From: Alphaproteobacteria bacterium
GTDB lineage: Bacteria; Pseudomonadota; Alphaproteobacteria; MPNO01; UBA830
DNA length: 64,000 nucleotides
NCBI GenBank assembly: GCA_964291215.2
Contig: OZ219791.1
Location: 256,001 to 320,000 of the forward strand
Reading direction: 5' to 3'
The notes beneath the pieces are model-generated. The model was not told the origin of the DNA, searched no databases, and was given only the letters and a program-made list of their open reading frames with translations. This document shows positions 1,036 to 28,181 of the stretch, one piece after another. Position 1 is the first letter of the stretch. Every line of letters starts with the position of its first letter. Both the position numbers and the translations under genes were made by a program.

Positions 1036-1191
1036 TGCAAATTCCTGGCGGATTTGACCGTGTGGTGCGTGGCCCTGAGCCTAGCCTGACCGGCTATCTG
1101 TGTCTGGCGGCCGCGCGGTCGTCGGAGGCGCCGTTTCTCTCCCGCCCCTTCCTCATCGATCACCTGATCGGATCGAGGAGGGAAGGGGTCG

Positions 1192-2753
1192 ATGAAGAGG
1201 ATCGGCATGATGAAGATCAAAAATATCCTGCGGCACCGTCACGATTTTGGGCTGCCGCGCTCGCAGATCGCCGCCGCGACCGGTGTGAGCACGGGGACGG
1301 TTTCGCATGTGCTTGTCCGGGCAGCGGCGGCGGGCCTTGCCTGGCCGTTGCCGCCCGGGCTCGACGATGAGGCGCTTCGTGCGCGGCTCTACCCGGCGCC
1401 GGACCAGGACAGCGACCGGACGCAGCCCGGCTGGGATGCAATTGTCGAGGCGCTCACCGCGCTCCGCAAGCGCCGCCGCGCCCGGCTGACGCGGCGCCAG
1501 CTCTGGGTCGAGTACCGGGACGAAGCCCTGGCGCAGGGGAGCAAGGCCTATACCTACAGCCGCTTCTGCGGACTGCTGAAGGGTCGTCTGCACAGCCGGC
1601 CCGGGCCGGCGCAGATGCGCTTCCACTACGAGCCGGGGCTTTGGGGCCTGTCGGACTTCTCGGGCAAGACGCTGGCGCTGCGCACCGGCCGCGGCGAGAA
1701 GGATGTCGAGATCTTCGTCGCCGTGCTGGCGCACTCGAACCTGACCTATGTCGAGGCGGTCCCCGACCAGGGCGTGCGCCACTGGATCATGGCGCACCGC
1801 CGCGCCTTCGAATACTTCGGCGGCGTCCCCGCCCGCTGGATCATCGACAACCTCAAGGCCGGCGTCGACAAGGCGGACCGCGAGGAGCCGCGGCTCAATC
1901 CGAGCTTTGCCGAGTTCGCCCGGCACTACGGGGTCGCGGTGCTGCCGGCGCGCTCGGGGCGGGCGACGGACAAGGGGCTCGTCGAAGCCTGCGTCGGGGC
2001 GGTCCAGTCGCGTATCCTGCTCGTGCTGCGCCGTGAGACCTTCTTCTCGCTGGAAGCGACGAACGCCGCGAGCCGGCGCGAGCTCGACTGGTTCAACCGG
2101 GCTCCCATGGCCTGCGGAGAAACCCGGCGCGCCCTGTTCGAGGCCAACGAACGGGCGCTCCTCAAGCCTCTACCCCGGACCCCTGGGAATGGGGCGAGTG
2201 GATCGAACGCAAGGTCGGGCCGAGTTGCCACGTCCGCATCGCCTACAACCACTACTCCGCGCCCGAGCGCCATATCGGGCGCAAGGTCCACGCCCGCGTT
2301 GGCGAGCGCACGGTCGAACTCTTCCTCGACAGGGGTGGCGAGCGGATCGCCGTCCACCGTCTGAAGAGCGGGCGCAACCAGTACGCCACCAGCCCCGACC
2401 ATATGCCTGACCGCCTGAACGCGGTGCGCGATATCCGCGAACCCGACTACGGCGACATCCTGCTCGCTGGCGCCCGCGCCATCGGAGCCAACGCGCTGGC
2501 CTGGGCCGAACGCTGCTTCGCCTCGCGCGACTTCCCCGAACAGGCCTTCGCCACCGTGCAGGGCATGATCCGCCTCGCCGACGACCACGGCGCCGAATGC
2601 CTCGATGCGCTCTGCGCCGAGGCCCTCGATGCGAACCGCCTCTCTTCCGGCTTCCTCAGGGACCGCCTCAGGGCCGGCGCCGAGCCGCGCCGTCCCCGGG
2701 CGGAAGCCGGCGAGACCATCCCCCGCCACGACAATCTCCGCGGCGGCTCCTAA
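1192..2753 (+). pseudogene. istA: IS21 transposase IstA (frameshift near 2180)
   Basis: N-terminal HTH; DFSGK, IIDNLKAGV and DKGLVE DDE motifs; the C-terminus (…HDNLRGGS) is in another frame (2403..2753). Confidence 0.85.
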
Positions 2754-2780
2754 CGACGGCAACGACAAGGGAACCAAGCC

Positions 2781-3542
2781 ATGACCCTCAGAAAACCCAA
2801 TATCGACCGCATGCTCCGGCTCGGCCTCACCGGCATGGTCGAAGCCCTGGAGGAACAGCGCGACATCGCCGATGTCGAGCAACTCGGCTTCGACGACCGG
2901 CTTGCCATGATGATCGAGCGCGAGGCCGGGCACCGCGACCACAAGAGCTATCTCGGCCATCTGCGCCAGGCCCAGCTGCGCATCCGCGCCGACATCCGGG
3001 ATGTCGACTGCCGCGCCGGGCGCGGCATCGCCCGCACCACGCTCACCCAGCTCGCTGCCGGCGACTGGATCCGGCAGGCGCTCAACCTGATCGTCGGCGG
3101 GGCGACCGGTTCAGGAAAGACCTTCGTGGCTTGCGCGCTCGCCCATCAGGCCTGCCGGCAGAAGCAGTCCGTCCTCTACCGCCGCGTCCCCGAACTGGTC
3201 ACCGCCCTCGTCCGCGCCTGCGACAAGGGCACCCACGCCCGGCTGATGGGCCGTCTCGCCAGGGTCGACCTGCTCATCCTCGACGACTGGGGCCTCCAGG
3301 GCTTCTCCGCCGAAGGACGACGCGACCTGCTTGAGATCGTCGAGGCCCGCCACCAGCGCAAGTCGATCCTGATCGCCTCCCAGATCCCCGTGCAGCAGTG
3401 GCCCGAGGTGATCGGCGAACCCACAATCGCCGACGCCGTCCTCGACCGCATCGTCCACAACGCCTACCGCATCGACCTCACCGGCGAGTCGCAGCGCAAG
3501 CGCAACAGGCCGCCGCCGCTCGACGGTGGGAACGACAAGTGA
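2781..3542 (+). CDS. istB: IS21 helper AAA+ ATPase IstB
   Basis: Walker A GATGSGKT, LLILDDWG, IADAVLDRIVHNAYRIDLTGES. Confidence 0.95.
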   Translation: MTLRKPNIDRMLRLGLTGMVEALEEQRDIADVEQLGFDDRLAMMIEREAGHRDHKSYLGHLRQAQLRIRADIRDVDCRAGRGIARTTLTQLAAGDWIRQALNLIVGGATGSGKTFVACALAHQACRQKQSVLYRRVPELVTALVRACDKGTHARLMGRLARVDLLILDDWGLQGFSAEGRRDLLEIVEARHQRKSILIASQIPVQQWPEVIGEPTIADAVLDRIVHNAYRIDLTGESQRKRNRPPPLDGGNDK

Positions 3543-3685
3543 GAGAGCCCGGCCTGGCGGCCGGGTCCAGGGGCGCCTGCGGCGCCACTCCCGACCGCAA
3601 CACCGGGCAAGCGCGCCGGCATGCCCTATGCAGGGGCTTGCCGGCGCGCAGAACACGCCTTTGCATGACAAACAGGGCTCGCTTA

Positions 3686-4910
3686 GGGCTTGTCACCAAA
3701 TAATCGAATCCGTGTTGTTTGCGTTGGCGTTTTTGTCTGTCTGGTGGTTTTGGTTGAGCGCTTGCCCAAGGGTCAGTCTGCTGGCTTCGGTTGTTTGGTG
3801 TTGGGGTCTTTCCGGGATGATTTGTCGGTCAGTTTGGTTGTCGGTTGATTGTCCGGCGCTGGTTGGGCGTTTATGTTCGGAGCATGGAACAGAGCATGAG
3901 GCACCGGTTTGCATTCCTTTCTCCTCATCTTGACGAGAAGGGTCGCCGGTTGCGGCGCAGTGTCTTGGGCGTGAGCGCAAGTCTCGGACGGCGTTGCGCG
4001 TTCGACGATTGGACGGGGTCTGAAGGAGCGGAACAACGTCGCCGCCGGCGCGCGGGCGGCGACGGAGCGTCAGCCGGGTTTGCTGGCGGCGCTGGTTGCG
4101 CCGGCGACGCGGGGCGACCCGGAACGGTCTCGGGTTTCGAAGAGCACCCGGCATCTTGCGAAGTGTCTTGAGGGGCAGGGTTGTTCGGCGTCGCTTGTCG
4201 GGCGGCTTCTGGGCGTATGCGCTGCAGGCGAAGACCCGCGAAGGCGGCGTGCACCGGGCAGTTCGGCCATATAAACGAGCAGGTTGCGGTGTTTCTTGCC
4301 GCCGGGGAGCCGACACCAGGAAGAAGGAACTGATCGGCGATTTCAAGAACGCCGGCCGCCAGTGGCGGCCGAAGGGCCGGCCCGAGGAAGTGAAGGTTCA
4401 TGACTTCGCGGACAAGGAACTCGGCAAGGCTGCCCCCTACGGAGACGTGGCCCACAACATCGGCTGATCAGCCATGACACGGCGGCGTTTGCGGCGGAAA
4501 GCATCCGGCGCCCAGGGCGCTACCCCGGGGCGGCGGCTGATCACCGCCGACTGCGGCGGCTCGAACGGGGCCCGGCTGCGGAAGGTCGAACTGCAGAAGC
4601 TCGCCAGGGAACTCGAGATCATGGTCTGCCGCCCGGCACCAGCAAATGGAACCGCACACCGCCTGTTCTCGTTCATCAGCCAGAACTGGCGCGCTGCGCA
4701 ACCTCGCCGCCATCGTCAGCCTGATCAGCGCAACCACCACCGAAGCCGGCCTCAAGGTCTATTGCGATGTCGACGAAAACACCTGTCCCAAGGGAATCAA
4801 GGATGCCGAGATCAAGGCCCTCGACATCAAGCGCGCAAAATTCCAAGGCGAGTGGAACTATTCACTCTTGCCAACACCCAATACAGAAGCGGTTGTTTCG
4901 TGACGAGCCC
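3686..4910 (+). mobile_element. ISAzo13-family element, degraded
   Basis: IRs GGGCTTGTCACCAAATAA / TTGTTTCGTGACGAGCCC; transposase remnants DTRKKELIGDFKNAG, VKVHDF, LITADCGGSNG, GEWNY. Confidence 0.8.
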
Positions 4911-5289
4911 TAAGGAGATTTTCGTTGTGCCGCTGCGGCGCGACGGATGCTGTCGCGCCCGCAGGCGCTGCGGTGGCGCCGCCTGCCTCGCCTGATCTCG
5001 CTCCCCGGGGTTCCGAGGTGATGCGTTCGCTGCACGACGAGCTGGCGGCGATCGAGAACTTCCGCCGCGCAGGAAGCACAAGGGAGGAGTTCGACAAGGC
5101 CCGCGGACGCCTCGAGCAGCGCTCGATACTTGCCGCTCGAGGACCTGATCAACTACCCCGGCAGATCGCCCACATGCTACCGCGAGCCGCCGGGAAAGAG
5201 CGCCAGCGGCGCAGCGAGCGGCAACGACTGCACCGGTACATCATCACCTTATATGACTAGGTTTTGTCCCCTTGATGATGAAATCATCC

Positions 5290-5560
5290 ACAGCAGTTGG
5301 GGGCGGGAAAATGTGGATAACCTCGACTGTGGGAGAGCGTCCGGTCTATGGTTGCAGAGAGATTCCGCTCCCCTGAGCGAACACGCACAGGGGAGCGGGG
5401 TGCGGGGATCAAACGATCTCCGCGGAGGTTGCCGTTTTGACCTTGGCCTTGACAGGGCCGCGAGCGAGTGTGGTCGGCCAACCTCCCTTGACGTCCCTCG
5501 CGTCCTGAATGGATGCTTGGGTTTGAACCCGTATCATCGTAAGGCGAGGAGCAAGAGACG
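5290..5560 (+). ncRNA. Putative IS110 bridge RNA (copy 1)
   Basis: Stem GGAGGTTGCCG/CGGCCAACCTCC encloses an internal loop with CGAGCGAG (reverse complement of target CTCGCTCG); ATGGATGCT (5509-5517) equals the donor right end plus core; boundaries approximate. Confidence 0.75.
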
Positions 5561-6386
5561 ATGGTCAAGATAGTAGCAGGGATTGATGTCAGCAAGGCCA
5601 GTCTGGACATCTGTGCGGCGGGCATTGTTTTGCGAACGACGCCACGAGCTGGCGGGCAAGTGGCTTCGCGGCCTCGGGGTGAGCCGGGTGGTGATGGAAG
5701 CGACAGGCCGCTATCACCGCAAGGTTCACCAGTGTCTTCATGACCGGGGCTTCGAGGTTATTCTCGTCAACCCGTTGCGGGCTTCGCCGAGGCGATGGGC
5801 CATCTGGCGAACCGCGTCGACGCGTTGATGCTGGCCAAGATCGGCTGGGCGATCTTGAGCCTGTGGCTCCTCAGGATGCCTTCCTCAAGAGCCTGGAGGA
5901 TCTCTTCGTGGCGCGTGCCGCGCTTGTCGACGCCAGGCAGGTGGCAGATGAGGTGGATGGCGAAGGCGAGACCGTCACAAGGGCCTCAGCGGCCGATCTC
6001 GATGACCGCATTGCCGGCGCGGCGATCAAAGCGGTGATCGCCGGTGATCCCGAGTAAGCCGAGAGGTATGCCATCCTGACCTCGATCCCCGGTCCGATGA
6101 CCGCCGCGGCCCTTCTTTGCTGGATGCCCGAACTCGGCAGCGTCGGCAGGCGGCAGCCTTGATCGGGGTGGCGCCGATGGCCAACGACCACGGTGCTCGG
6201 CACATCCGTGGCGGGCGCCGAAGGCCACGCGATCTCCTGTTCATGGCCGCAACCGGCACGCTTCAACGCGGACCTGGTGCGCCTCAAGACTGCCGGCAAG
6301 GCCCACAAGGTCGCGATTGTCGCCGTGATGCGCAAGCTCTGGCGAACACCTTGCTGCGACAGCAGCGTTGCCTGAAGTACCGGTGA
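5561..6386 (+). pseudogene. IS110 recombinase, multiply deleted
   Basis: MVKIVAGIDVSKASLDI, VVMEATGRYH, AHKVAIVAVMRKL. Confidence 0.85.
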
Positions 6387-6834
6387 GTGAGCGAAGGAGA
6401 CACGGCCCTGCCGAAAGCGCGATCGGGACTGTCTCGACAGTCTCCCTCTACGACACGACTTGGGGAGAATGTCTGCAGATCATCGTCGAGGTCGACATCA
6501 AGGAGATCGAACCGCCTTGGGACACCTGGAACCCGGACGGTCACGTGCCCGGGGACGGCAAGGTAGCCGCGTTCACGTGACCAATGGACGGCAACCCGCC
6601 GCCGGGACCACAAGCTTCATGTCGCCTCGCTCGCAGAGCAAACCCCACACCGCTTGTGGACAACCACAGAAAACATCACCACAGACACCCGCAAAAACCT
6701 TGCCAAGAAACATGGATGCTCGCTCGATGCGCAACACGCGTCGCCAGAGGAACTGCTGCGGCCGCGGGCCGTGGAAAACATGAACCACCGAGACCGCGTC
6801 TTCGGCGAGGACGCCTGCCTGACCCGCACCGGCC

Positions 6835-11172: not shown

Positions 11173-12198
11173 ATGGGTTACAGGCTTGCCATCGTCGGAG
11201 CCACGGGCAATGTCGGGCGAGAGATCCTCAGCATCCTTGCCGCGCGGGACTTTCCCGCCGATGAGGTTTACGCGCTCGCGTCGTCGAGATCCGCTGGCCA
11301 GGAGGTCCGTTTCGGGGAAGACCAGCCCCTCGAAGTCCGGGAGCTCGCCGAGTTCGATTTCGCGGGGATCGACATCGCGATGTTTTCCCCCGGAAGCCGG
11401 GTGTCGGCCGAGCACGCGCCGCGGGCGGCGGCGGCCGGTTGCATCGTCATTGACAACACGTCGCATTTCAGGATGGAACCCGACATCCCGCTGGTCGTGC
11501 CGGAGGTCAATCCCGAGGACATCGATCTCTGCAGCCGGCGCGGGATCATCGCCAATCCGAACTGCTCAACCATCCAGATGGTGGTTGCGCTCAAGCCGCT
11601 CCACGAACTCGCCCACATCAAGCGGGTCGTAGTCGCCACGTACCAGTCGACTTCGGGAGCGGGCAAGGCGGCCATGGACGAGCTGTTCGAACAGACTCGT
11701 GGAATCTATGCCAGCAAGCCCCCGCGACACAAAGCCTTTACCAAGCAGATTGCGTTCAACGTGATTCCGCACATCGACATATTCATGGATGACGGCTCCA
11801 CCAAGGAAGAGTGGAAGATGGCCGTCGAGACGAGGAAGATCCTAGATCCGGAAATCGCGGTTCATGCGACCTGCGTCCGGGTTCCGGTATTCGTCGGCCA
11901 TGGCGAGGCCGTGAGTGTCGAGTTCGAAGCCCCGGTCGGCGAGACGGAAGCGCGCGACGCGCTCCGCAATGCGCCCGGCGTGATCGTCGTCGATCATCGC
12001 GTTGATGAGGGATATGTCACGCCCGAGGAGTGCGCCGGCGAGGACGGGGTCTATGTCAGCCGCATTCGCACCGATCCGACCGTGGCCAGCGGGTTGTCCA
12101 TGTGGGTGGTCTCGGACAACCTTCGCAAGGGCGCTGCACTCAATACGGTGCAGATTGCCGAACTGCTGATCGAGAGGAAACTGGCTGCGGCGGCCTGA
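11173..12198 (+). CDS. asd: Aspartate-semialdehyde dehydrogenase
   Basis: VGATGNVG, IIANPNCSTIQ, SDNLRKGAALN. Confidence 0.97.
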   Translation: MGYRLAIVGATGNVGREILSILAARDFPADEVYALASSRSAGQEVRFGEDQPLEVRELAEFDFAGIDIAMFSPGSRVSAEHAPRAAAAGCIVIDNTSHFRMEPDIPLVVPEVNPEDIDLCSRRGIIANPNCSTIQMVVALKPLHELAHIKRVVVATYQSTSGAGKAAMDELFEQTRGIYASKPPRHKAFTKQIAFNVIPHIDIFMDDGSTKEEWKMAVETRKILDPEIAVHATCVRVPVFVGHGEAVSVEFEAPVGETEARDALRNAPGVIVVDHRVDEGYVTPEECAGEDGVYVSRIRTDPTVASGLSMWVVSDNLRKGAALNTVQIAELLIERKLAAAA

Positions 12199-12311
12199 TC
12201 GGTCCCGTGGCCGACGTTGATTGACTTGGCCCGGTCAACCGCCTACACTTTTGCCATGGTGCCGGGCAACCGGGGGCCCGCGTTGCCAATCAACACCACG
12301 GAATGCTGCCC

Positions 12312-12707
12312 ATGGCGAGTCGCGATCGTCCCCTGTCGCCACATCTGCAAGTCTACAAGCCCCAGCTGACATCCGTCCTCTCGATCATGCACCGCATGAC
12401 CGGGCTTGCCCTCGCCGCAGGCACGCTGATGCTCGTCTGGTGGCTGTTTGCCGCTGGCGCGGGCGCCGGCGCCTATGCTGCCTTTCAGGATTTCGCCGGC
12501 TCGGGGCTGGGGCGGCTGCTGCTGATGGGCTGGACATTTTCTCTCTTCTACCACCTGTGCAACGGAATCCGCCACCTGTTCTGGGACGCGGGCAGGGGCT
12601 TCGAGCTTCCCGCGGCCTACGCGAGCGGCTGGTTCGTTGTCGGCGCCTCCGTCATCCTTACCCTCGCCGCCTGGGTATGGGGCTATGCCACGATGGGTGC
12701 GCTGTGA
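12312..12707 (+). CDS. sdhC: Succinate dehydrogenase cytochrome b556 subunit
   Basis: RPLSPHLQVYKPQ, HRMTG, HLCNGIRHLFWD. Confidence 0.95.
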   Translation: MASRDRPLSPHLQVYKPQLTSVLSIMHRMTGLALAAGTLMLVWWLFAAGAGAGAYAAFQDFAGSGLGRLLLMGWTFSLFYHLCNGIRHLFWDAGRGFELPAAYASGWFVVGASVILTLAAWVWGYATMGAL

Positions 12708-13090
12708 CGGTCTCAAGACGCTCCCCCCTGGCGCGCGTGCGCGGACTTGGTCCGGCCCGGGAAGGAGTGGCCCACTGGTGGGCGCAACGCGTAACCGCGA
12801 TTGCCCTGGTGCCGCTGTTCCTGTGGTTTGTGGCGTCACTCTGCGTCATGACAGGGGCGAGCCAGCAAGAGGTGCGCGCCTGGATCGCCGATCCGGTGGT
12901 GTCGGTTCTGCTGGTACTGCTGACCGTGGCGGGGTTCCATCATGTGCAACTCGGGCTCCAGGTCGTTCTCGAAGACTATGTCCGCACCGAATGGCTGAAG
13001 ATCGCCTCGATGATCCTGACGAAATTCGCGGCCGTCGTGCTGGCGGTCATGGTCATCTTCTCGGTCGCCAGAATCGCGCTGGCCAACTAG
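12704..13090 (+). CDS. sdhD: Succinate dehydrogenase hydrophobic anchor subunit
   Basis: GTGA overlap with sdhC; HWWAQRVTA, GLQVVLEDYV. Confidence 0.93.
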   Translation: MTVSRRSPLARVRGLGPAREGVAHWWAQRVTAIALVPLFLWFVASLCVMTGASQQEVRAWIADPVVSVLLVLLTVAGFHHVQLGLQVVLEDYVRTEWLKIASMILTKFAAVVLAVMVIFSVARIALAN

Positions 13091-13105
13091 GACGCCGGGA
13101 AACCC

Positions 13106-14902
13106 ATGAATACGAACGCTTACGAGATCGTCGATCACACCTATGACGTGGTGGTTCTCGGTGCTGGCGGCGCCGGCCTCCGCGCCACCTTCGGCATGGC
13201 GATGAAGGGGTTGCGCACCGCCTGCATCACCAAGGTCTTCCCGACCCGGAGCCATACCGTGGCGGCGCAGGGCGGGATCTCGGCGGCACTCGGCAACATG
13301 AGCGAGGATGACTGGCGCTGGCACTTCTTCGACACGGTGAAGGGCGCGGACTGGCTCGGCGATCAGGATGCGATCGAGTACATGTGTCGCGAGGCGATCC
13401 CGGCGGTGCTCGAACTCGAGCATTACGGGGTGCCGTTCTCGCGCACCGAGTCCGGCAATATCTATCAGCGGCCGTTCGGCGGAATGACCACCCGCTACGG
13501 CGAAGGGCCGCCCGCGCAGCGGACGGCGGCGGCCGCCGACCGGACTGGCCACGCGATCCTGCACACGCTGTACCAGCAATCCCTCAGGAACGATGCCGAG
13601 TTCTTCGTCGAGTATTTCGGCCTCGATCTGATCATGGACGAGCACGGCGCCTGCTGCGGCGTGATGGCGTGGAACCTCGATGATGGCACTATCCATCGGT
13701 TCAGGACCAACCTGGTCGTGATCGCCACCGGCGGATACGGACGGTGCTACTTCTCATGCACCGGTGCGCACACCCAGACCGGCGACGGCAACGCCATGAT
13801 CTTGCGGGCGGGCCTGCCGTGCGAGGACATGGAATTCATCCAGTTCCACCCCACCGGAATCTATGGCGCGGGCTGCCTGATTACCGAAGGCGTTCGTGGC
13901 GAAGGCGGCTATCTGACCAACTCCGAGGGCGAGCGTTTCATGGAGCGCTACGCGCCGAGCGTGAAGGACCTGGCTTCGCGCGACGTCGTGAGCCGCGCCA
14001 TGACAATGGAAATCCGCGACGGCCGCGGCGTCGGGCCAGACAGCGATCACATCCACCTCCATATCGAGCATCTCGATCCGGCCATCATCGGCGAACGCCT
14101 GCCCGGCATATCCGAAACCGCGCGCATCTTCGCCGGCGTTGATGTGACGAGGGAGGCCATACCGGTGCTGCCGACGGTTCACTACAACATGGGCGGCGTC
14201 CCGACGACCTATCGTGGCGAGGTCGTCAAGCCGGTCAACGGCAGCGCCGAGGAGATCCAGCCGGGGCTGATGGCGATAGGCGAGGCGGCCTGTGTGTCGG
14301 TGCATGGCGCCAACCGCCTCGGATCCAATTCGCTGCTCGATCTCGTGGTCTTCGGGCGCGCCGCGGCCGAGCGCGCCGCCGAACTGATCGAGCCCGGCCA
14401 GAAGCAGCCGGAGCTGCCGAAGGGTGCCGGAGAAAGGGCGCTGGCCCGTTTCGATTCCAGGCGCCACGCGTCGGGCACCACAACGACCGCCGAGTTGCGT
14501 CTCGAGATGCAGCGGACGATGCAAGAGCACTGCGCGGTCTTCCGCACCCATGAGCTGATGACCGAGGGCCGGGAGAGGCTGTCCAGCATCTGGGCCAAGA
14601 ACGATGACCTCAAGGTCAACGACCGCTCGTTGATCTGGAATTCGGACCTCGCGGAGACGCTGGAATACGACAACCTTCTCGCCCAGTCCATGGTCAGCCT
14701 TGATTCCGCGATCAACCGGACCGAGAGCCGGGGCGGACACGCGCACGAGGACTTTCCGGACCGGGATGACGAGAACTGGATGAAGCACACCTATGTCTGG
14801 CTCGATGACGATGGCACGACCCGCATTGACTACCGGCCGGTCCATACCAACACGATGAGCAACGACGCCGAACCCGTTCCGCCGAAGGAACGGGTCTACT
14901 GA
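13106..14902 (+). CDS. sdhA: Succinate dehydrogenase flavoprotein subunit
   Basis: [27 protein letters not shown]. Confidence 0.98.
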
Positions 14903-14912
14903 GAGACAGGCG

Positions 14913-15692
14913 ATGGCCCAGTTTACACTGCCCCGAAACTCGAAGGTCCGCGAAGGAAAGACCTGGCCGGCGCCGGACGGCGCCGCACGGCCGCGGCAGT
15001 TCCGGATCTATCGATGGAATCCCGACGACGACGGACCCCCGCAGGTCGACACCTATACGATCGACCTCGACGACTGCGGGCCCATGGTGCTCGACGCGGT
15101 GATAAAGATAAAGGGCGAGATCGATTCGACGCTGACCTTTCGCCGCTCCTGCCGCGAGGGCGTGTGCGGCTCCTGCGCAATGAATATCGACGGCACCAAC
15201 ACGCTTGCCTGCACCAAGTATATCGATGAGGTAAAGGGCAACGTCAGGGTCTATCCGCTGCCGCACATGGCGGTCGTGAAAGACCTCGTCCCTGACCTCA
15301 CCGAAGCCTATACCCAGTACCGCTCAATCGAGCCCTGGCTCAAGTCCGAGACCCAGCCGCCGCCGGGCAAGGAACGGTTGCAGTCTCCCGAGGAACGCCG
15401 GAAGCTTGACGGGCTGTGGGAATGCATCCTGTGCTTCTGTTGCACCACCAGCTGTCCCAGCTACTGGTGGAACGGCGACCGGTACTTGGGACCCGCCACC
15501 CTGCTGCAGGCCAGCCGCTGGATCGAGGACTCCCGCGATGAGGCGACAGGCGACCGCCTGGACGAGCTCGAGGATCCGTTCCGCCTCTATCGCTGCCACA
15601 CCATCATGAACTGCACCAAGGCCTGTCCGAAAGGACTCAATCCGGCTGCGGCAATCAGTGGTATCAAGCAGGCGATGGTTCGCCGGCGCTAG
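14913..15692 (+). CDS. sdhB: Succinate dehydrogenase iron-sulfur subunit
   Basis: [34 protein letters not shown]. Confidence 0.98.
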
Positions 15693-15741
15693 AGCCGCTG
15701 CCGGCAGGCGAGTCTGCCCCGGCCAGCCCCCAGAGTTGCAT

Positions 15742-16860
15742 ATGTCCGCAGGCCCGTTGTCCGCCTATCGTGAGCGCCAGCGCAGGGGCCAGCTGCAGCA
15801 CGATCCGATGCAGGCCCTGGCTGCGGAAAAGCTGCAGTCTCTCTGGCACGCGCTTGTCGGATATGTCCCTGCTGACCGTACGTCGCGCTGGCGGTCACGG
15901 CTCGGTCTGGCGCGGCGCCCTGCCGAGCCGGCGCCGCAGGGCCTCTATATCTGCGGGAAGGTGGGGCGCGGCAAATCGATGCTGATGGACCTGTTCTTCG
16001 CCACCGTGGAGGGAAACCACAAGCGCCGGGTCCATTTTCATGAATTCATGCTCGAGATCCACGATGCGATGCACCGGCTGCGCAAGGGCACCGGCCAGTC
16101 GCGCGATCCGCTGCCGCGCATCGCGCGCGAAATCGCCGCCGAGACCTGGCTCCTGTGCTTCGACGAGTTTCAGGTCGACAACATTGCCGACGCCATGATC
16201 CTGGGTCGACTGTTCGAGGCGCTTTTCGACGACGGCGTGGTGGTGGTTGCGACCAGCAATATCCATCCCGACGATCTCTATCGCGACGGGCTTCAGCGAG
16301 ATCGTCTGCTTCCCTTCATCGCCGTGCTCAAGAACCGGCTGGATGTCCTCCAGCTGGATGCCCGTCAGGATTATCGCCGCAGCCGCCTTGTCGGCACGCC
16401 CACCTATCATGCGCCGATCGACGGGAACGCCGCCACGGCGCTTGATGATGCCTTCGCGGCCCTGACTGACGGCGCCGAGAGCAGACCGGCTGAACTGACG
16501 GTGCTGGGCCGGTCGCTCCGGATTCCCGCCGCCGCCCGGGGCGTCGCCCGGTTTTCCTTCGATGAACTCTGCGGGCAGCCGCTCGGATCTTCGGACTATC
16601 TGGCCATCGCCAAGGCGTATCACACTGTCATCCTGTCAGCCGTTCCGGTGCTGACGCTGCCCCAGCGTAATGCGGCCCGACGGCTGGTCACGCTGATCGA
16701 CGCGCTCTACGAGCACCGTGTGATGTTGCTGGCCTCGGCCGCCACGGCCCCCGACGCGCTGTGTCCGGACTCCCGGATCGCGCCGAATTTCGAGCGCACG
16801 GCTTCGCGGCTGATCGAGATGCAGAGCGCCGAATATATCGCCCGGAGAATTGGCGGATAA
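15742..16860 (+). CDS. zapE: AFG1/ZapE-family ATPase
   Basis: GKVGRGKSMLMD, LLCFDEFQV, FERTASRLIEMQS; usual position after sdhB. Confidence 0.93.
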   Translation: MSAGPLSAYRERQRRGQLQHDPMQALAAEKLQSLWHALVGYVPADRTSRWRSRLGLARRPAEPAPQGLYICGKVGRGKSMLMDLFFATVEGNHKRRVHFHEFMLEIHDAMHRLRKGTGQSRDPLPRIAREIAAETWLLCFDEFQVDNIADAMILGRLFEALFDDGVVVVATSNIHPDDLYRDGLQRDRLLPFIAVLKNRLDVLQLDARQDYRRSRLVGTPTYHAPIDGNAATALDDAFAALTDGAESRPAELTVLGRSLRIPAAARGVARFSFDELCGQPLGSSDYLAIAKAYHTVILSAVPVLTLPQRNAARRLVTLIDALYEHRVMLLASAATAPDALCPDSRIAPNFERTASRLIEMQSAEYIARRIGG

Positions 16861-17019: not shown

Positions 17020-18740
17020 CACGCTAAATTCTGTTTGTTTTTCAAGGCAGCACCTGGGTTTGGGGGGTGCGGGTTGGTGCGGGAGATTTTTTTACACCCC
17101 CGTTCCATAGTGAAGTGGGGACAGTTTTCGCTGTCTTTCCTGCACTGGAGTTGTCATGGTGCGGGGATGTCGGTTCACAAGCGCATCGCATCCTGTCCGA
17201 TTCACATCGCAGCTCTGGAAGGGTCTGTCCGAGGTTCGCGAAGCCTGAGGAGCGTCCGCTGCGCTGATGGACGACTATCTCGGGTTTCGCCGTCTGGCGG
17301 GCTGCGCCATGTTGCGTCCTTCAGGGGGCAGTGGTCTGGCCGGGGTCTTCAAGTGCCGCGACAAGTGGCTGGAAGCCGGGGCAGCAGTGGCTTGATCTTA
17401 CAACACGCGACTGCTTGCGGCGCCGGGAACGTTTCCGAACCTTGCTTCCTTCTTTCTTGCGACGCGGCGGCTGGCCGACGACCGGGCCTGCGGCCACCAG
17501 GTGGCGGAGACGTTCTGCGATCCGGCGCGTTTTGCGGGCACAAGGCGGCGGGCTGGCGTGCCAGGGGGGGGCCGCGGGCGCTGCACCGACCCCCATGGCA
17601 AGGAGGTTTTCGTTGTGCGGCGCGGCGGCTGCTGTCGCAGGCGCTGCGGTGGCGCCGCCTGCCTCCTCGCTCCCCGGGGTTCCGAGGTGATGCGTTCGCT
17701 GCACGACGAGCTGGCGGCGATCAAGGACTTCCGCCGCGCAGGAAGCACACGATGTGCTCACGTTCTCGCCGAGCTTGCGAACATGAAAGGCAGCTGCGCA
17801 GTTTGCGCGGTCGCTGTCCCGGAACGAGCTCGAGGCCATCGGCGGAACCCGAGGACGGGCTTCGCGAGCCGCCCTCCAGGGCGACCCTCCACCGGGTCGT
17901 CCGACCCCGAGGCGCTCGAGGCTGTGCTCGGCCGCGGGCTCGCCCGGGCGCTTGCCGCCGACGGCAAGCGCGGCGCCAACGGCCACCACGAGACCGTGGC
18001 CCTCACGCCTCCGGCGCATCCTTCGCGCTGTTGAACTTCGACGACGGCGAGCTGGCGGCCACCTCCTCGAGCGCACCAATGTTCGCGGCAAGGTGATCAC
18101 CCGCACGACGCCGGCGGCGCTGATCACCCGGCGCTGCGGCGCAGACCACGTCTTCCCGGTCAAGGGCACCAGAAACCTTCGACGGCATCGACCGGGAGAC
18201 GGATGGCCGCTTCAAGGAGGCAAGGCCCGCCTCGAGCAGCGCGTGCCGCTCGAAGACCTGATCAACTACCCCGGCAGATCGCTCGCATGCTGCCGCAAGC
18301 CGCTAAGAAAGAGCGCCAGCGGCGCAGCGAGCGGCAACGACTGCACCGGTACATCATCACTTCGCTCGATGCGCAACATGCGTCGCCAGAGGAACTGCTG
18401 CGGCCGCGGGCCGTGGAAAACATGAACCACCGAGACTGCGTCTTCGGCGAGGACGCCTGCCTGACCCGCAAACCGCGCCAGCCTCGACAACATCGTGCTC
18501 GCGGTGATCTTCGCCAACCGACGCGAGAGCCTCGCCGAAACACGGCGGCGGCTCGACCGCCGGAAAGCCGTCGCAGCCCTGAGCGCCAATGGCGTCCGGC
18601 CGATTCCCGGACGCCGCCCACAACCCGCCCACGAGCCGATAACGCCGCCGGCGACGACCGCGGACGACCCCGAAGCCGGAAAACCCGGCACGCCGTGAAA
18701 CCTCCGGACAGCAGAAGACAGCAAAATTGAATGCAGCGTG
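17020..18740 (+). mobile_element. ISAs1-family element with DUF4338/DruA-like 5' region, degraded
   Basis: Imperfect IRs CACGCTAAATTC / GAATGCAGCGTG; remnants FKCRDKW, AETFCDPARFAG, ADGKR, DHVFPVKG, VENMNHRDCVFGEDAC; flanks are not duplicated. Confidence 0.75.
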
Positions 18741-19094
18741 GGAAACACCTGTGATCCCGATCTTGACGATCCCACGCTGCTAATCCAGCGGCGACCGGCG
18801 AGATTTTTCGGTCTGCGTCGCGCTGCAATCGTGCCGCCAAGGCTCAATGAGACCTTCTCGGCGCGAAAAATTGCGATCAAGGGGAGATCTGCGATGACGC
18901 GAGCCCCAACGCACTCGGATTTCGCGTCTCAGAATCGGCATGGGATCACCGTGGATCCCGACAATCCGTTCTTGACCGTTATGGGATAATCGCTAGTATC
19001 GGTGCGCCCAACGGTGCGCACGATATCGCAGAATCGGCGGTATGCAGGGATCGGGGCAGGCGTTGCCTGAATGAGAGCGATTACGGAGAGCGGT

Positions 19095-19433
19095 ATGACG
19101 TATGTCGTCAACGAGGCGTGCATCAAGTGCAAGTTCATGGATTGTGTCGAGGTCTGCCCGGTAGACTGTTTCTACGAAGGCGAGAACATGCTCGTCATTC
19201 ATCCCGACGAATGCATCGATTGCGGGGTTTGTGAGCCGGAATGTCCGGTCGAGGCGATTCGCCCCGACATGGATGAGGCGTCCGAGCCGTTCATCGAACT
19301 CAACCGCAAGTTTTCCGAAACCTGGCCCAACATCACGCGCAAGGGGGATTCTCCCGCCGACGCCGACGAATGGCGGGACGTGTCCGACAAGTTCGAGCAG
19401 CACTTCAGCGAGAATCCGGGCGAGGGGTCCTGA
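19095..19433 (+). CDS. fdxA: Ferredoxin FdxA (7Fe type)
   Basis: [41 protein letters not shown]. Confidence 0.95.
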
Positions 19434-20213
19434 CCGCGACGGCCGGCTGGCCGTCGCGGCGCCATGTCTCCCTCCGGGAGACGACAGTTCCTGCGGCGCA
19501 CGCGCCGTCAGGCCAAGCCTTTCCCACGCTGTGGCTGACGTTTTGAATGACCGCAGAACGAGGCGGATATTTCCGCATTCTTGTCGGGTTTTCCGGCTGT
19601 GGCGACCCGTGGACAGCCCCGCGGCTTTCAAACAGTCATGGTTAACTCGTGCCCGCGCGGAAATGACCGTTTTGGCTGATCCTCCGGCGAAATTTCGGGT
19701 TTGATCCACTCCCGGAGCTTCCGGGTGCTCCGTTTCCAAGGGGATTCCTGCCGATTCGCAGCGACACAGGGCCCTTCCAACCGAGAATCCGGCGCAACCT
19801 GGCCCAATTTCAGCTGCGGGCGGATAACGTTTCGCGTGGCAATTCTCGCGAAGTTTTCCGAAAATCCGGCGGATTCCCGGTCTGATCGGTCAGTTCCCGC
19901 CCCAAAGCGGGATTCTTCGTCCCTTCTATATCACGATTTCGCCAATAGAATCGCGCGGTCGTGCATTTTTGGGCAGGCACTAACTCGACGTTCATGAGCA
20001 TCCATGTTTCCTGGCAAGGCTTTTGCGGGTGTCCGCGGTGATGTTTTCTGTAGTTGTCCACAGGCGGTTCGGGGTTCCGCCTTGTCGATGTCCTGCGAGC
20101 AAGGCGACATGCAGCTTGTGGTCCCGGCGGCGGGTTGCCGTCCATTGCTCATGGTCATGTGAGCGCAGCCACCTTGCCGCCCAGCGTTCCGGGGCATGAT
20201 AACGTTACCATGT

Positions 20214-20483
20214 TCAATGGAGTTCCGGGTGTCCCGTCCGTAGCCGCGAAGCGGTTCGATCCTTCTCGAGGACCTCGATGTCGGCCTCAACGATGATCTG
20301 CAGATGTTCTCCGCAAGCCGTGTCGCGCGGGGAGGCTGTCGAGACAGTCCCGACAGTGCTCCTGCAACGCACCGAGCCACCGCATCGCGCCAGCGTTGCG
20401 CACGGGAACGACGGAGCTTTCCGTGGCGGGGATTTGCGGCGTTCCCGATAACGGCGCTGCTTCTCGACAGGGGTGAGAGCCAT
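20214..20483 (-). pseudogene. Small passenger ORF inside IS110, probably degraded
   Basis: RBS AAGGAG; MALTPVEKQRRYRERRK; a homologous remnant lies at about 6390-6580 in copy 1. Confidence 0.55.
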
Positions 20484-20765
20484 GAGGTGTCTCCTTCGCT
20501 CGCTCGCAGGTCACCCGTGCCGGTGCTTCAGGCGACCAGCAGCGCTGCTGTCGCAGCAAGGTGTTCGCCAGAGCTTGCGCATCACGGCGACAATCGCGAC
20601 CTTGCTTGCCGGCGGTCTCGAGGCGTTCGAACACCAGGTTCGCGTTGAAGCGTGCCGCCGAGGTCCTTGTGACGGTCTCGCCTTCGCCATCCACCTCATC
20701 TGCCACCTGCCTGGCGTCAACAAGCGCGGCACCAGGAGTCTTCCTTTTTCCTCCGGTTTTCCTCC

Positions 20766-22031
20766 GGTACTGTAACTTGATGTCTGGAAATTTGTCTGAG
20801 GTTTGCGCTTTGAGGCGTTTCACTGGGGGCTAGCCCCCCAGTGAAACGCGGCGCCATCGTGCTATCCCATGGAGTTGTAAAACATTCATGGAGGAAGCGA
20901 ATGGACCTGCGACACACTACGACGATTGAGGCCGTTTTGGAACATCTGATCGCAAACGGAGCAACGGATCTGGGGCGGATCTTTGGTCAGCTCTTCGAGC
21001 TTGCGATGCAAATCGAGCGCGAGCAGCACTTGAAAGCGGGCCACCGGACACCGGAACGACAGGGCTATGCCAACGGCTACAAGCGGATCGACACCCCCAC
21101 TGTTACCGTTCAGGTACCAAAGACGGCCGGTCACGGGGACGATCCGTCCCCAGTCGCTTGAACGCGGCCAGCGATCTTCTCGCGCCGTGGCCGTAGCCGA
21201 GATGTACATCAAGGGTGTTTCCACGCGGCAAGATGTAATGCGCGAGTTCGAGAGCCTGTCCTCTTCTCAGGTCAGCCGGGCCACTAGGTTGCTCGATGAA
21301 GAACTCGCCGCGCAACCGGCCCCTGATGAAATACCTGATCCTGGATGCGCGCTATGAAAAAGCCCGCCATGACGGCGTTGTGCGCGATGTCGCAGTGCTC
21401 TCGGCCATCGGAATAGGGGCTGCAGGCACGTTCTGGGGCTCTCTGTGGCGCTCTCCGAGGCCGAGGTCCATTGGAGAGCCTTCCTGGAAAGCTTGCTAGC
21501 CCTGCATGGTACGACCTTCATCGTCTCGGATGCCGGGCTGAAAGCGGCACGACGCGCGGTGCTGGGCGCGGCGATGTGGCAGCGCTGCCAGTTCCACTTG
21601 GCACAAAACGCCGTGCAGCACGCACCGAACAACGACATCAGGAAACGTATTGGAAAACAGCTCGGAGCCATGCGTCCTCACTCCAAACCGCCGAGGCTGA
21701 ACTGGGCGCCCTCGTGGCCAGCTATCGCGACAAGCATCCAAACTTCGCAGACTGGCTGGAAAAGAATGCGGGGCTCGCTGTCTTCACCTTGCCCGATGCT
21801 CACCACAAGCGCATGCGAACCTCGAATGGCATCGAGCGGCCGATCCGGCAAGAGCTCAAGCGGCGCACCTCCAAAGTCAGGGTCTTTCCGAACCTCGCCT
21901 CGTTGGAGCGCCTCTCAACCGCGATCCTCATCGACGAAAAATGGGAAACCGAAACCAAGGCATACATCAAATGGGAACAGCTCGATGACTGAGAGCTTCA
22001 CGACAATTTCCAGACATCAGGTTGCGTAATC
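20766..22031 (+). mobile_element. IS256-family element, degraded
   Basis: IRs ..GTAACTTGATGTCTGGAAAT / ATTTCCAGACATCAGGTTGC..; EMYIKGVSTR, LILDARYEK, WQRCQFH, RTSNGIER, VFPN; partial TSD TCCTCC. Confidence 0.88.
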
Positions 22032-22241
22032 GATCCTCCAGGCAGTTGAGGAAGGCTTCCTGAGGAGCCACAGGCTCGAGATCGCCGAGCACCGTGCCGA
22101 TCCTGGCCAGCGCGTCGACGAGGTTGGCCAGATAGCTCAACGCCTCGGCGAAGCGCCGGGCCCGCAACGGGCAGGACAACCTCGAAGCCCCGGTCATGAA
22201 GACACCGGTGAACCCTGCGGTGATAGCGGCCTGTCGCCTCC

Positions 22242-23771
22242 GTATCTACTCACCCCTTGTTGGGTTCTGATTGGCCATAGTGCTCGTTGATGATGTCTGC
22301 GGCTTTTCCGTCGAGGGCGATATGGGTGGCGACGAGTGGGTTGTAGCCGAGTGCGGCCATGGAGGTGAGGTAGCTTGAGCCCCGGCACCATGCTTTTGCG
22401 TGGAGCGGAAGCATCCGGACACCTTGACCTTTGCCATCCTGATCTTCTGTTCTCCGGCATTGTTGGTGAAGCTGACATCAGGGTCGTCTGTGAAGCGCAG
22501 GTTTTCGTGTTTCACGAGACGTTCGTGCAGGTTGTGCGCGTTTGCTATGCGTTTTCCTTTCGTCGGCGGCGGGATGTCGGGCAGTTCCTTGGCGCCCTGA
22601 TGGTGCGGTAGCGCTTGCGCCCGGCGTCGTTCAGGGTCTTGGATGCGCTCTTGTTGACCTTGTGGCAGACCTCGCGGAGCAGGCTCTTCATCAGTCGCGC
22701 GGTAGCCTCGACGACAAAGGTCAGTTCGCGCAGCAGGTGGCTGCCGCACAACTGGTAGCTACACTGCCATGTACGAGGCCCAGGACGCCCTTGTAGCACG
22801 GGATGATGCCGATCTCTTGCCTCCCGGCCGCGCTTGCGGTGCGGGAACTTGCACGTCCCGACGACATGGAGCCACTTGCCGGCGACCCGAAATCGTCGAC
22901 ATCGGGCGTTGCAGGAGGTGCGCCACGGCAGCCTCCTCCCATGACGCATCGTGAAAGCATAGCTGAGGCCTCGGAGAGCTTGATGCCGGAGATCGCCTGC
23001 ACGAGCGCGACAGCACGGCGCAGGGACAGCATCTGGGCGACCAGCAGGTTGATGACGAGGGCCTGAATGCCGATGCCGTACTGCATGGGATGTTGTCGGG
23101 GAACCGGCCCCGGGCCTTGCACTTCGGGCATTCCTTGATCTCGGCGCGGCGCTCGACGACCTCGAACACGATGTCGTGCGGCGCTCCCGATCGACGGGGC
23201 CGACGCCGCAGGCGTCGCAGGCCGCGACCGTCTCCTCGACGATGATCTTGCGCAGGTTGTCGCCCATCTGCCGGTTCGGCTTCGGGCCGTTGCTCCCGGC
23301 ACGCTCTTGTCCGTCTGTGACGGCGGCAGACCGGAGTTCCGGCTCGTGCGTGGTCTTCTCCAGAAGGACAACGATGAGGATGTCGAGCAGGATGACGAGG
23401 ACGCGGATCACGGCCTCTTCCGCCACCTTGCCGGCCGCACCGCCGCAAACCGCCGCACACGCAGCGCCGCGGTCCGGGTCTTGGCCGCTTCGAACTCCTC
23501 GCGCGCCGCCCGTCGCCATCACCCGGCCTTGCGCTTCATCAGCGCGCCGCCTCCGAGATGCGTTTCCACATACAGATCATGCGGAGGCTGGAGCCCCGGA
23601 AGCAGCTGGCACAGCCCGCTCGTCGCCTTCGATCCAAAGTAGCCCACTGGCGGTTCCCGTCGTTCTCGATTACCACCACTAAACGAATCGGCCTGCAGTG
23701 TCAAATCTCCACGAAAACCCGTTCGTTACTCTACCCCGACATCAGGCCGGAACCAGGGGGTGAGCAGTTAC
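22242..23771 (-). mobile_element. IS66-family MTase-carrying element, degraded copy B
   Basis: Same IRs as copy A; 8-bp TSD TCGCCTCC inside the IS110 MEATG codons. Confidence 0.9.
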
Positions 23772-23909
23772 TCGCCTCCATCACCACACGGGTTACCTCG
23801 AGGCTGCGAAGCCACGTGCCCGCCAGCTCGTGGCGTCGTTCGCAAAACGACGCGCCGCCGCACAGATGTCCGGACTGGCCTTGCTGACCCTTGCTACTAC
23901 CTTGACCAT

Positions 23910-24174
23910 CGTCCCTTGCTCCTCGCCTCATGATGATACGGTTCAAACCTAGGCATCCATTCAGGACGCGAGGGACGTCAAGGGAGGTTGGCCGACCACT
24001 CTCATGAGCGGCTCTGAAAAGCCAAGGCCGAAACGGCAACCTCCGCGGAGATCGTTTGATCCCCGCACCCCGCTCCCCTGTGCGTTTTAGCACAGGGGAG
24101 CGGAATCTCTCTGCAACCATGGACCGGGTGCTCTCCCACAGTCGAGGTTGTCCACATTTTCCCGCCCCCAACCG
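23910..24174 (-). ncRNA. Putative IS110 bridge RNA (copy 2, 5'-truncated)
   Basis: Homologous to 5290-5560; its loop carries TCATGAG, the reverse complement of its own target CT-CATGA. Confidence 0.7.
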
Positions 24175-24700: not shown

Positions 24701-25705
24701 TGCGCGAGTGGCCGAGGCGACGGGGATGGGCACCGTTCGCGCCGGAGGAGCTTGATTCGGAGTCTTCGAGTGAGATTCCTTCAGGACGTTTGCGTCGCCC
24801 CGGCGGCGGGCGCAAGCGGGTGACGGATCCGGGTTTGTTGGCGGCGCGCGAGCTTGAACCGATGACACGCGGCGATCCGGAGAGTTTGTTGCGGTGTCAC
24901 AGTGCCGCACGGCTGGCGGACCGTCTTGCGGTCGAGGGTCAGCGAGCGCACGGTGAACCGGCTGCTCCACGATCCGGGGTACAGCCTTCAGGCCAACCGC
25001 AAGACGCTGGAAGGCCGCCAGCACCGGGATGCGCAGTTCCGACGCGCCGGGTGCGCGCGTTCCGGAGGCTGGGTCAGCCTGTGGTGACACGAAGAAGAAG
25101 GAAATCCAGTACCGCATGGCGGCCGGGCCCCAAGGGCGACCCTGAAGCCGTCAACGTGCATGACTTCCCCGATCCGGAGCTCGGATCCCCTACGGGGTCT
25201 ACGATCTCACCGCCAATGCCGGCCGGGTCAGCGTCGGGCACGACACGGCGGCGTTCGCGGTCGAGGCCGCTGGTGGCGGCAGATGGGCCAGCTGGTCTGT
25301 CCCGATGCCGGGCGCCTGCTGATCACCGCCGACGGCTCCAACAACAGCCGCAACCGGCTGTGGAAGCTGCAGCACCTCGCCGACGAACTCGGGTTGAAGG
25401 TGTCGGTGGCCCGCTTCCCGCCCGGAAAGTGGAACAAGATCGAGCACCGGATGTTCTGCCATATCACCCGGAACTGGCGCGGCCGGCCCCTCGTCAGCTA
25501 CCAGGTGATCGTCAAGCTGACCGCCGCGACCACCACCGGCCTCACCATACGCTCGCACCTCGACGAGAACAGCTATCCGCTCGGGGTCAAGGTCAGCGAC
25601 GATCAGATGGACGGCCTCGCCATCCGCATAGACCCGTTCCACGGCGAATGAAACTACACCCTCACACCACGAACATAACAATCAATTTATTTTGGCGAAA
25701 ATCTT
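24701..25705 (+). mobile_element. ISAzo13-family transposase remnant
   Basis: RRPGGGRK, GYSLQANRKT, VNVHDFPD, KWNKIEHRMFCHITRNWRGRPL. Confidence 0.8.
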
Positions 25706-27397: not shown

Positions 27398-28165
27398 ATG
27401 GCTCGTGCTAGGATGTCTTCAAGTTTGAAGAGGGTTCCGAAGTCGGACGACGACTCGGACGGTGCAGCTAAATCTTCGTCATCGCGGCGAAAGGCTGCGA
27501 GCAGGCCGAAAACCCGGACAGCAAAGAAACCGGTGCCGCCTTCGGCAAGAAAGAAAACCGTGGCGGAAAGCAAGAAGAATGCCGTGACAGACAACGGCAA
27601 GCGGCCGGCTGCTGCGGCAAAGGTCTCTGCCAAGACGGCTCCGGCCGAGAAACCGGCGGTCGCAAGGAAAACGGCCAGCAAATTGCCGTTCACAAAGGGC
27701 GACTATGTCGTCTATCCCACGCACGGCGTCGGTAAGGTTACTGGAATAAAGCGGCAGACAATCGCCGGATTCGACCTACAACTTTTTGTCATCGTCTTCG
27801 ATTCCGACAAGATGACCCTCAGGGTGCCGGTCGACAAGACCGCCGAATCGGGTCTGCGCAAGATCAGCTCCAGGGACAAGATGCGTACCGTCGTTGCGAC
27901 CCTCAAGGGCCGCGCCCGGTCCCGCAGGACGATGTGGAGCCGGCGGGCGCAGGAATACGGCACCAAGATCAACAGTGGCGATCCCGTGGCGGTCGCCGAG
28001 GTGGTGCGCGATCTCTACCGTTCGCCGAGCCAGCCGGAACAGTCCTACAGCGAACGCCAGATGTATGAGGCGGCCCTCGACCGCCTAGTGCATGAATACG
28101 CGCTGGTCCAGAAACTGGATGTGGAGACGGCGACCATCAAGATCGAGGAAATTCTCGGCGGCTGA
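27398..28165 (+). CDS. carD: CarD-family transcriptional regulator with basic N-terminal extension
   Basis: FTKGDYVVYPTHGVG, MWSRRAQEYGTKINSGD, QSYSERQMYEAAL. Confidence 0.92.
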   Translation: MARARMSSSLKRVPKSDDDSDGAAKSSSSRRKAASRPKTRTAKKPVPPSARKKTVAESKKNAVTDNGKRPAAAAKVSAKTAPAEKPAVARKTASKLPFTKGDYVVYPTHGVGKVTGIKRQTIAGFDLQLFVIVFDSDKMTLRVPVDKTAESGLRKISSRDKMRTVVATLKGRARSRRTMWSRRAQEYGTKINSGDPVAVAEVVRDLYRSPSQPEQSYSERQMYEAALDRLVHEYALVQKLDVETATIKIEEILGG

Positions 28166-28181
28166 CGCTCCTGCTCCACTG

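Follow-up and report, generated by a model that had tools for sequence, protein, structure and literature searches.

The bridge-RNA mechanism has been known since 2024. In IS621, the element's circular form creates a promoter, and the transcribed RNA bridges target and donor DNA and can act in trans (PMC11208160, PMC11208158); natural covariation between guides and targets was described over 5,511 pairs, with right guides of 4–7 nt (PMC11208160), and the concept of a handshake base, a donor-loop base pairing with target position 7, comes from PMC11208158. Half-match recombination by IS621 has also been described (10.64898/2026.08.31.748434). For the IS1111 group, natural redirection was described between ISEc11 and ISXne4, whose transposases are 72% identical, each IS or group of close relatives was described as having one site, and IS4321/IS5075, cited in the same paper, target the Tn21 inverted repeats (PMC11187229). 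The comparison with IS621 and ISCro4/IS622 draws on PMC11208160, PMC11208158 and 10.1101/2025.05.14.653916.

The window analysed here, a stretch of 64,000 nt from a contig of an alphaproteobacterium, holds two copies of an IS110 element that has the sequence-testable features of this group and, by analogy, probably works like IS621. As in the accounts of IS621 and ISCro4/IS622, there is a CT core without any other duplication, an RNA (predicted here) encoded in the left end with a 5' hairpin followed by a target loop and then a donor loop, left guides that read as the top strand, right guides in reverse complement, a discontiguous right donor guide, a handshake base and a junction promoter (both putative here), and a recombinase with DEDD and serine residues. 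The two systems differ in several respects: relatedness to IS621 at the protein level is only about 30–40% (HMMER alignment); the covarying target here is about 5+CT+5, compared with 7+CT+2 given for IS621; the targets here are other IS elements, while those given for IS621 are REP sequences; and many guide programs are found in one genome here, in copies that are all pseudogenes and known from sequence alone. As described for ISEc11/ISXne4 and IS4321/IS5075, re-aiming appears to proceed by changes in guide segments and other mobile elements serve as targets. In contrast to ISEc11/ISXne4 as described, one family of 86–99% DNA identity carries nine programs in one genome, and in contrast to the IS1111 group, whose guide RNA lies downstream, all guides here lie upstream of the gene. 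We read the genome as holding about 65 broken copies of an IS621-type IS110 element, in at least nine guide versions each fitting a different site, which was re-aimed stepwise while active, and we give this reading a probability of roughly 0.8. It is built on the element ends, the CT core, four guide segments, covariation, empty alleles, target hosts and the decay of the recombinase.

Copy 1 occupies positions 5250–6718 of the window with CT cores on both sides (5248–5249 and 6719–6720), and its parts and target sites, with an empty allele elsewhere in the window, are as follows.

5242–5247, plus strand: left target CATCAC, inside an ISAs1-family transposase remnant (from the ISAs1 assignment and empty alleles)
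5248–5249, plus strand: CT core at the left junction of copy 1
5250–5560, plus strand: non-coding left end of copy 1, in which the predicted bridge RNA is encoded
5252–5257, plus strand: -10-like half TATGAC of the predicted circle-junction promoter
5362–5423, plus strand: 5' hairpins of the predicted bridge RNA
5424–5486, plus strand: target-binding loop with closing stem and inner hairpin
5437–5443, plus strand: left target guide TTGAC-CT, matching its own left target ATCAC at 3/5 bases
5462–5468, plus strand: right target guide, 7 nt with the core, reverse complement of CT-CGCTC
5509–5517, plus strand: left donor guide ATGGATG-CT, equal to the element's right end plus core
5536–5544, plus strand: right donor guide; GTAAG at 5539–5543 pairs with CT-TAT with one G-T, and the putative handshake base is G5544
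5561–6375, plus strand: IS110 recombinase pseudogene with many short deletions, 3' limit approximate
6376–6718, plus strand: right end with the left donor ATGGATG; -35-like TTGCCA at 6700–6705
6719–6725, plus strand: CT core and right target CGCTC of copy 1
18352–18371, plus strand: empty allele of the copy 1 target in another ISAs1 copy, with TT replacing the CT core (1 match, 0 in 100 shuffles)

The preliminary description had placed copy 1 at CATCAC-CT-CGCTCG, and this was borne out: the right end ...ACATGGATG is followed by CT at 6719–6720 and by the right target CGCTCG. Empty alleles of the site are present in the genome, 18 of them perfect, and also in contigs from public runs (joints to 6719), which confirms the ends of copy 1 and a duplication limited to the CT core. 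The left end is 311 nt long, non-coding and upstream of the recombinase gene. Its proposed right guide, CGAGCGAG, was recovered at 5461–5468, but the eighth matching base is not a general feature; likewise, the proposed left guide TGACCT is present at 5438–5443, but as an imperfect allele (TTGAC matches ATCAC at 3/5 positions), the cognate allele TTCAC-CT being carried by the copy at G000:C2:3343630, which is 98.8% identical to copy 1. Two further proposals were confirmed, namely a donor-loop guide matching the element's own right end plus core (ATGGATGCT at 5509–5517) and the circle-junction spacing TTGCCA-N17-TATGAC, since 6700–6705 and 5252–5257 would sit 17 nt apart in a circle. The right donor guide (5536–5543) and the putative handshake base were missing from that description and are identified here. 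The pseudogene retains a PF01548 match at 5643–5789 (E 1.1e-4, below the cut-off). One candidate 10/12 pair of sub-terminal inverted repeats (5254–5265/6694–6705) was found among 26 short pairs, unevenly placed.

The predicted bridge RNA has two stem-loops with internal loops after the 5' hairpin, a feature supported by conservation of pairing. In the two-loop structure, defined on 22 sequences and compared with slid and shuffled controls, 92.0% of cells are paired versus 85.6 in shuffles (0/500) and 31–60% when slid, and 48 double changes are seen versus 16.3 in shuffles; the number of pairs with double changes exceeds shuffles only marginally (11 vs 8.6, 30/500). Taken by themselves, the two loops have weak folding z-scores (-0.55 to -2.1), and the longer left end folds well (z -4.6) because of the 5' hairpins. 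An Rfam scan of 5200–6800 gave no match at E<=1. The enclosing stem, initially taken as conserved, is indeed present, but in a shortened, derived form: six more bases of the 5' arm are kept in 1 of 64 genomic bridge RNAs (L011), and the relatives and a run X3 contig keep them too. In 32 of 58 copies the opposite arm shows a second loss, of 5 nt, which makes the stem perfect again. Contigs of runs X1 and X3 corresponding to window 5431–5468 have a long-stem bridge RNA together with guide alleles absent from the genome assembly (linkage from equal depth).

Both donor guides match the element's own ends. The left one, ATGGATGC(T), behaves as if invariant, and the right one tracks left-end variants, with ACAAG in 4/4 CT-TGT copies versus 3/36 others. 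The putative handshake base is A in all 6/6 cases where T precedes the core in the target and G in 71/76 cases where C does, a pattern amounting to only about three independent switches. Consensus-like -35 and -10 hexamers at a fixed 17-nt offset were found in 47/47 relatives, the offset being set by the slicing of the sequences, and most genomic copies have a weak -10 (TATGAC). A promoter scan of the linear locus returned none, and the -10-like half was not picked up.

Copy 2 lies on the minus strand and is interrupted by an IS66-like (about 22243–23771) and an IS256-like element (about 20770–22035).

19997–24172, minus strand: copy 2, which has lost 46 nt of its left end and is split by two other elements
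24025–24031, minus strand: left target guide TCGGC-CT of copy 2, whose own left flank is lost
24001–24007, minus strand: right target guide of copy 2, reverse complement of CT-CATGA

Its right side agrees with the earlier account, in which a right flank CT-CATGA faced TCATGAG at 24007–24001: the core is at 19998–19997 and the right flank is CATGA. The extent to 24174 had to be revised, as homology begins at 24172, equivalent to copy-1 position 5296; copy 2 is missing the initial 46 nt along with the left core and left target. Both halves of the copy 2 guide fit the site of the copy at G000:C2:2909520 (9/10).

We then searched the whole genome (G000; 6.15 Mb in 2 contigs) for copies of the family by BLAST and obtained 66 left-end, 71 right-end and 64 bridge-RNA matches; one interrupted copy was counted twice among the left-end matches, and the family size is about 65 copies. 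The 58 copies under 2 kb share 86–99% DNA identity (median 94%) and comprise subfamily A (33 copies, each sharing 95% identity or more with copy 1), subfamily B (18 copies) and seven older copies, the older subfamilies being 86–94% identical. Nearly fixed differences separate subfamily A from B at 49 sites, and their diagnostic bases are almost unmixed. No intact cognate recombinase was found in this genome: all recombinase genes are decayed, and none of the 58 copies keeps all four catalytic-region motifs. The copies carry 20–47 short deletions each (median 39) against the pooled alignment, counts that are upper bounds because real insertions inflate that alignment. When pooled, the copies can be read in one frame over residues 1–307 of the protein of a relative, L002. 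Judged from these sequences, the family looks dead in this assembly. Pure assembly error was ruled out as the source of the deletions, which are also seen in contigs from three public runs of one study, where guide alleles recur as well. Two long open frames of about 430 aa with strong PF01548 matches (C1:480856-481293 and C1:884303-884740) were considered as the cognate recombinase and rejected, since the L002 protein gave no match to them; they are taken as another IS110-family subfamily. No circle-junction sequence was found in the assembly, and no joint from right end to left end among the joints listed for public-run contigs, both results being uninformative for rare circles.

Correspondence between loop sequence and flanks in other copies, which the preliminary description had set as its test, was found genome-wide and in relatives (p<1e-4). 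The right side could be compared in 60 of the 66 left-end matches, those with both a right guide and a right flank (6 lacked the bridge RNA or the right end), and the left side in the 41 that had a left guide and whose left junction was intact (the other 25 were left out), with permutation of guides among copies as the null. The right 5 nt match the own flank perfectly in 38/60 copies (null mean 14.3), the left 4 nt in 25/41 (null 7.9) and the left 5 nt in 18/41 (null 6.2), all with p<1e-4, although the copies are related and these counts overstate the independent events. Among unique guide–flank pairs, mean matches were 3.95 vs 2.97 on the right (n=19; 7/19 perfect, p=0.002) and 3.55 vs 2.66 on the left (n=20, significant); perfect left matches among unique pairs were not significant (3/20 vs 0.9, p=0.056). 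Guide columns are also the variable part of the element, with variability of 0.27–0.39 compared with about 0.05 in the rest. A match at the sixth base past the core is seen in 43% of the 60 genomic copies and in 16% of 51 relatives, so that, from the proposed right guide of 7–8 nt including the core, the 7-nt version stands and the 8-nt version does not.

A perfect match to the own right flank is lacking in 22 of 60 copies. Among 37 copies with both flanks, 16 score under 9/10, and 11 of those 16 fit the guide of another copy at 9/10 or better. In a further comparison, 14 target classes were built from empty alleles or own flanks, with classes 10 and 11 merged and the class of copy 2 omitted as it has no left flank. 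For eleven of the 14, at least one of the 18 guide pairs in the genome fits at 9/10 or better, compared with 0.24% of 20,000 random CT sites, and the remaining three reach only 7–8/10. These comparisons support both the interpretation as a bridge RNA and guide–target covariation.

We further explored relatives in other genomes. L002 encodes an intact recombinase of 315 aa with both IS110 domains, which passes the Pfam cut-offs for PF01548 and PF02371 and that of NCBIfam NF033542; it matches the IS621 structure 8WT6 with E 4e-27, and its residues D9/E51/D93/D96/S233 are aligned to the five catalytic residues. With this recombinase as query, 79 loci were fetched and the target loop was parsed in 56. 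The right 5 nt are perfect in 34/51 and the left 5 nt in 23/50, counts lowered by five loci that are one base off register. For unique pairs, mean matches were 3.95 vs 2.04 on the right and 3.56 vs 2.09 on the left (p<1e-4). Beyond five bases matching is low (16% for the sixth right base, 14% and 38% for left positions 6 and 7), and the covarying target is therefore about 5+CT+5. Of the seven related genomes in which two or more copies were parsed, six hold more than one guide pair, five of them with two to five pairs by parsing and the sixth with four by eye. In the record set CBDCSZ, one left guide is combined with three different right guides, and one right guide likewise with three left ones. 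Genomes with several guides are common in the clade, which lowers the uniqueness of the window and strengthens the generality of the finding. A DNA search of 40 relatives returned only one match, a distant one.

The right flanks of the genomic copies fall into 16 classes, 11 of which have empty alleles reading left target-CT-right target; in these, insertion took place around the CT core without further target duplication. In a genome with a repeat content of 28%, 64 of 68 right ends adjoin DNA present at least three times. The hosts are IS1634-like elements (classes 0 and 13), ISNCY (class 1), two ISAs1 families (class 3; classes 6 and 8), DruA-like repeats (classes 10 and 11) and the end of an IS630-like element (class 12), assignments that rest mostly on matches below curated cut-offs, the hosts being broken too. 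BLAST against plasmids named no host for 2 of 3 queries, and domain and family searches gave no family name for the hosts of classes 2 and 14. In classes 3 and 8 the site falls on corresponding codons (Y-x-[IM]-T-S) in two ISAs1 families (E 2e-4). One copy, L110 (G000:C1:2111547-2112916), is inserted in the catalytic-glutamate region of another IS110-family gene (PF01548 match); its flank is single-copy, and the site fits its own guide at 10/10. The guide-matching allele is carried by 14/14 occupied versus 5/14 empty IS1634-like hosts and by 20/21 occupied versus 9/23 empty ISAs1 hosts (both significant), and the same contrast was not significant in 6 of 8 host families. Many perfect 11-mers in single-copy DNA are unoccupied, and the concentration in other IS elements is therefore likely to reflect selection against insertions in genes.

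Two observations concern the hosts themselves. In the IS630-like host of class 12 (e.g. L106), 41 of 48 empty copies have no guide-matching site, mostly via a 6-nt deletion; this loss could be chance under the general deletion load, or an escape from targeting. L102, L104 and L105 are multicopy repeats that combine a DruA-like domain (PF14236) with an ISAs1 transposase, and several guide programs target different places in elements of this type.

Counting the guide of copy 2, occupied cognate sites exist for at least nine guide programs and lie mainly in ISAs1, IS1634, ISNCY, IS630 and DruA-like repeats. Five of these programs and copy 1 lie inside subfamily A and form a one-substitution network, with the chain TCGAC/CGGAC - TCGAC/CGGTC - TTGAC/CGGTC - TTGAC/CGATC and the side chain TTGAC/CGGTC - TTGAC/CGCTC - TTCAC/CGCTC. 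As these programs are linked by single substitutions, stepwise re-aiming is likely. The guide of copy 1 is the link in the side chain; it may represent a genuine intermediate, or recombination between two alleles may have produced it. The natural reprogramming within one genome that was first proposed is upheld as far as guide–target covariation goes, and its extension to all re-aiming inside this lineage is what we infer with differing strength: it is likely for subfamily A, and older subfamilies may have arrived separately.

It is conceivable, though we would not bet on it, that guides chose the sites but that only about ten insertions were founders, copy number having grown by amplification as passengers of host elements and by gene conversion, which also shuffled the guides. 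Most copies have one of a few flanks, several join left and right flanks of different classes, and all are broken yet have deletions in common. Host divergence speaks both ways: among ISNCY hosts the occupied ones diverge less from one another than from the empty ones (0.018 vs 0.061), but this is not the case for IS1634-like (0.041 vs 0.038) or ISAs1 hosts (0.047 vs 0.050). Subfamily B moreover occurs in four different site classes, and the diagnostic bases of A and B are scarcely mixed, both of which count against this reading. Less probable, and in our view unlikely, is that the guide versions evolved elsewhere and came in as separate invasions of related elements that this genome collected. 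Such an origin would fit pairwise identities down to 86% with distinct clades in the tree, the 49 nearly fixed sites between A and B, and the spread of related elements with other guides over several genomes. It is at odds with subfamily A, where five programs and copy 1 are at least 95% identical and one or two substitutions apart and the cognate sites lie in this genome's own repeats, and with the absence of a close relative of the element from 39 of 40 sampled relatives in the DNA search. That the matches are chance, linkage or assembly chimeras is highly improbable: repeats make up 28% of the genome, mis-joined repeats could explain some guide–flank mismatches, and no public-run contig examined spans a whole copy, but complementarity cannot arise from linkage, p<1e-4 was reached in two independent sets (genome copies and relatives), and contigs from three public runs, all of one study, show guide alleles and deletions again.

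Under the preferred reading of stepwise re-aiming, and by extension from IS621, excision to a circle would join TTG(C/A)CA and TAT(G)A(C/T) into a promoter, the bridge RNA would bind the DEDD/serine recombinase, and about 5+CT+5 target bases would be read, with the left guide on the bottom strand and the right guide on the top strand. Single changes of guide bases and the exchange of left and right guide halves between copies would open new sites, and insertions would survive mainly within other mobile elements. The guide–flank mismatches in a third of the copies probably stem from later inter-copy recombination, RNA acting in trans or half-match insertion, their flanks fitting the guide of another copy. 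Half-match recombination as described for IS621 is a possible route to copies that match half of a guide, and inter-copy recombination explains the same pattern.

More tentatively, the family could be regarded as a parasite of transposons that moved by a mutational walk of its guides, each step changing a single base, and by half swaps, left and right guide halves being exchanged across the conserved inner hairpin. The walk TTGAC/CGGTC -> TTGAC/CGCTC -> TTCAC/CGCTC would start in one family of ISAs1 and end at the homologous Thr-Ser codons in a second, the intermediate being kept by copy 1. The shortened stem, together with the second, stem-restoring deletion, would leave the bridge RNA functional, and decayed copies might have guided in trans.

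Both the mechanism and natural re-aiming have been published, and what appears to be new is the scale within one genome. Many guide programs in one genome were not reported in the literature listings searched, and Supplementary Data 2 of PMC11208160, in which targets are binned by guide, may hold comparable cases. The copies provide a natural series of at least nine guide–target pairs whose scaffolds are nearly identical, and which includes intermediates as well as empty alleles and mismatched sites, by which the routes of point mutation and half swapping become directly testable. We know of no acquisition step by which bridge-RNA elements gain new targets, unlike CRISPR. In IS-rich genomes, it does not hold that each IS has a single site. 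The clade also has a naturally long right guide, a property reported to raise specificity in IS621.

Apart from its guides, the genome shows a lineage-specific excess of 5–7 nt deletions throughout (e.g. window 1100–3600, 5250–6720 and 20800–23750), which is possibly more unusual than the guide finding. Six other repeat families have 8–27 indels per kb with a peak at 5–7 nt, and over 190 kb of single-copy DNA this genome lacks 26 such segments versus 3 lacking in genome G001. Few gaps are seen in the IS110 copies within five related genomes. Subfamilies A and B have recurring deletions in common though the 49 diagnostic bases stay unmixed, and microhomology of at least 2 nt accompanies 162 of 281 recurrent deletion events versus about 20% expected. 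No single sequence motif accounts for the deletion sites. NucS and Ku were considered as the cause and discarded, as neither was found in this genome; MutS is present. Slippage loops too large for mismatch repair, or short-patch conversion biased towards deletion, are possible explanations.

Near copy 1 the window holds an IS21-like pair (rve and IstB) and ISAzo13-family remnants (1192–3542, 4474–4995 and 25160–25651). The genes between the IS clusters (11173–16860, 19071–19433 and 27398–30242), which we take to be asd, sdhCDAB and genes for a ZapE-like ATPase, a ferredoxin, a CarD-like regulator and an adenylate cyclase, are intact housekeeping genes as judged from their translations.
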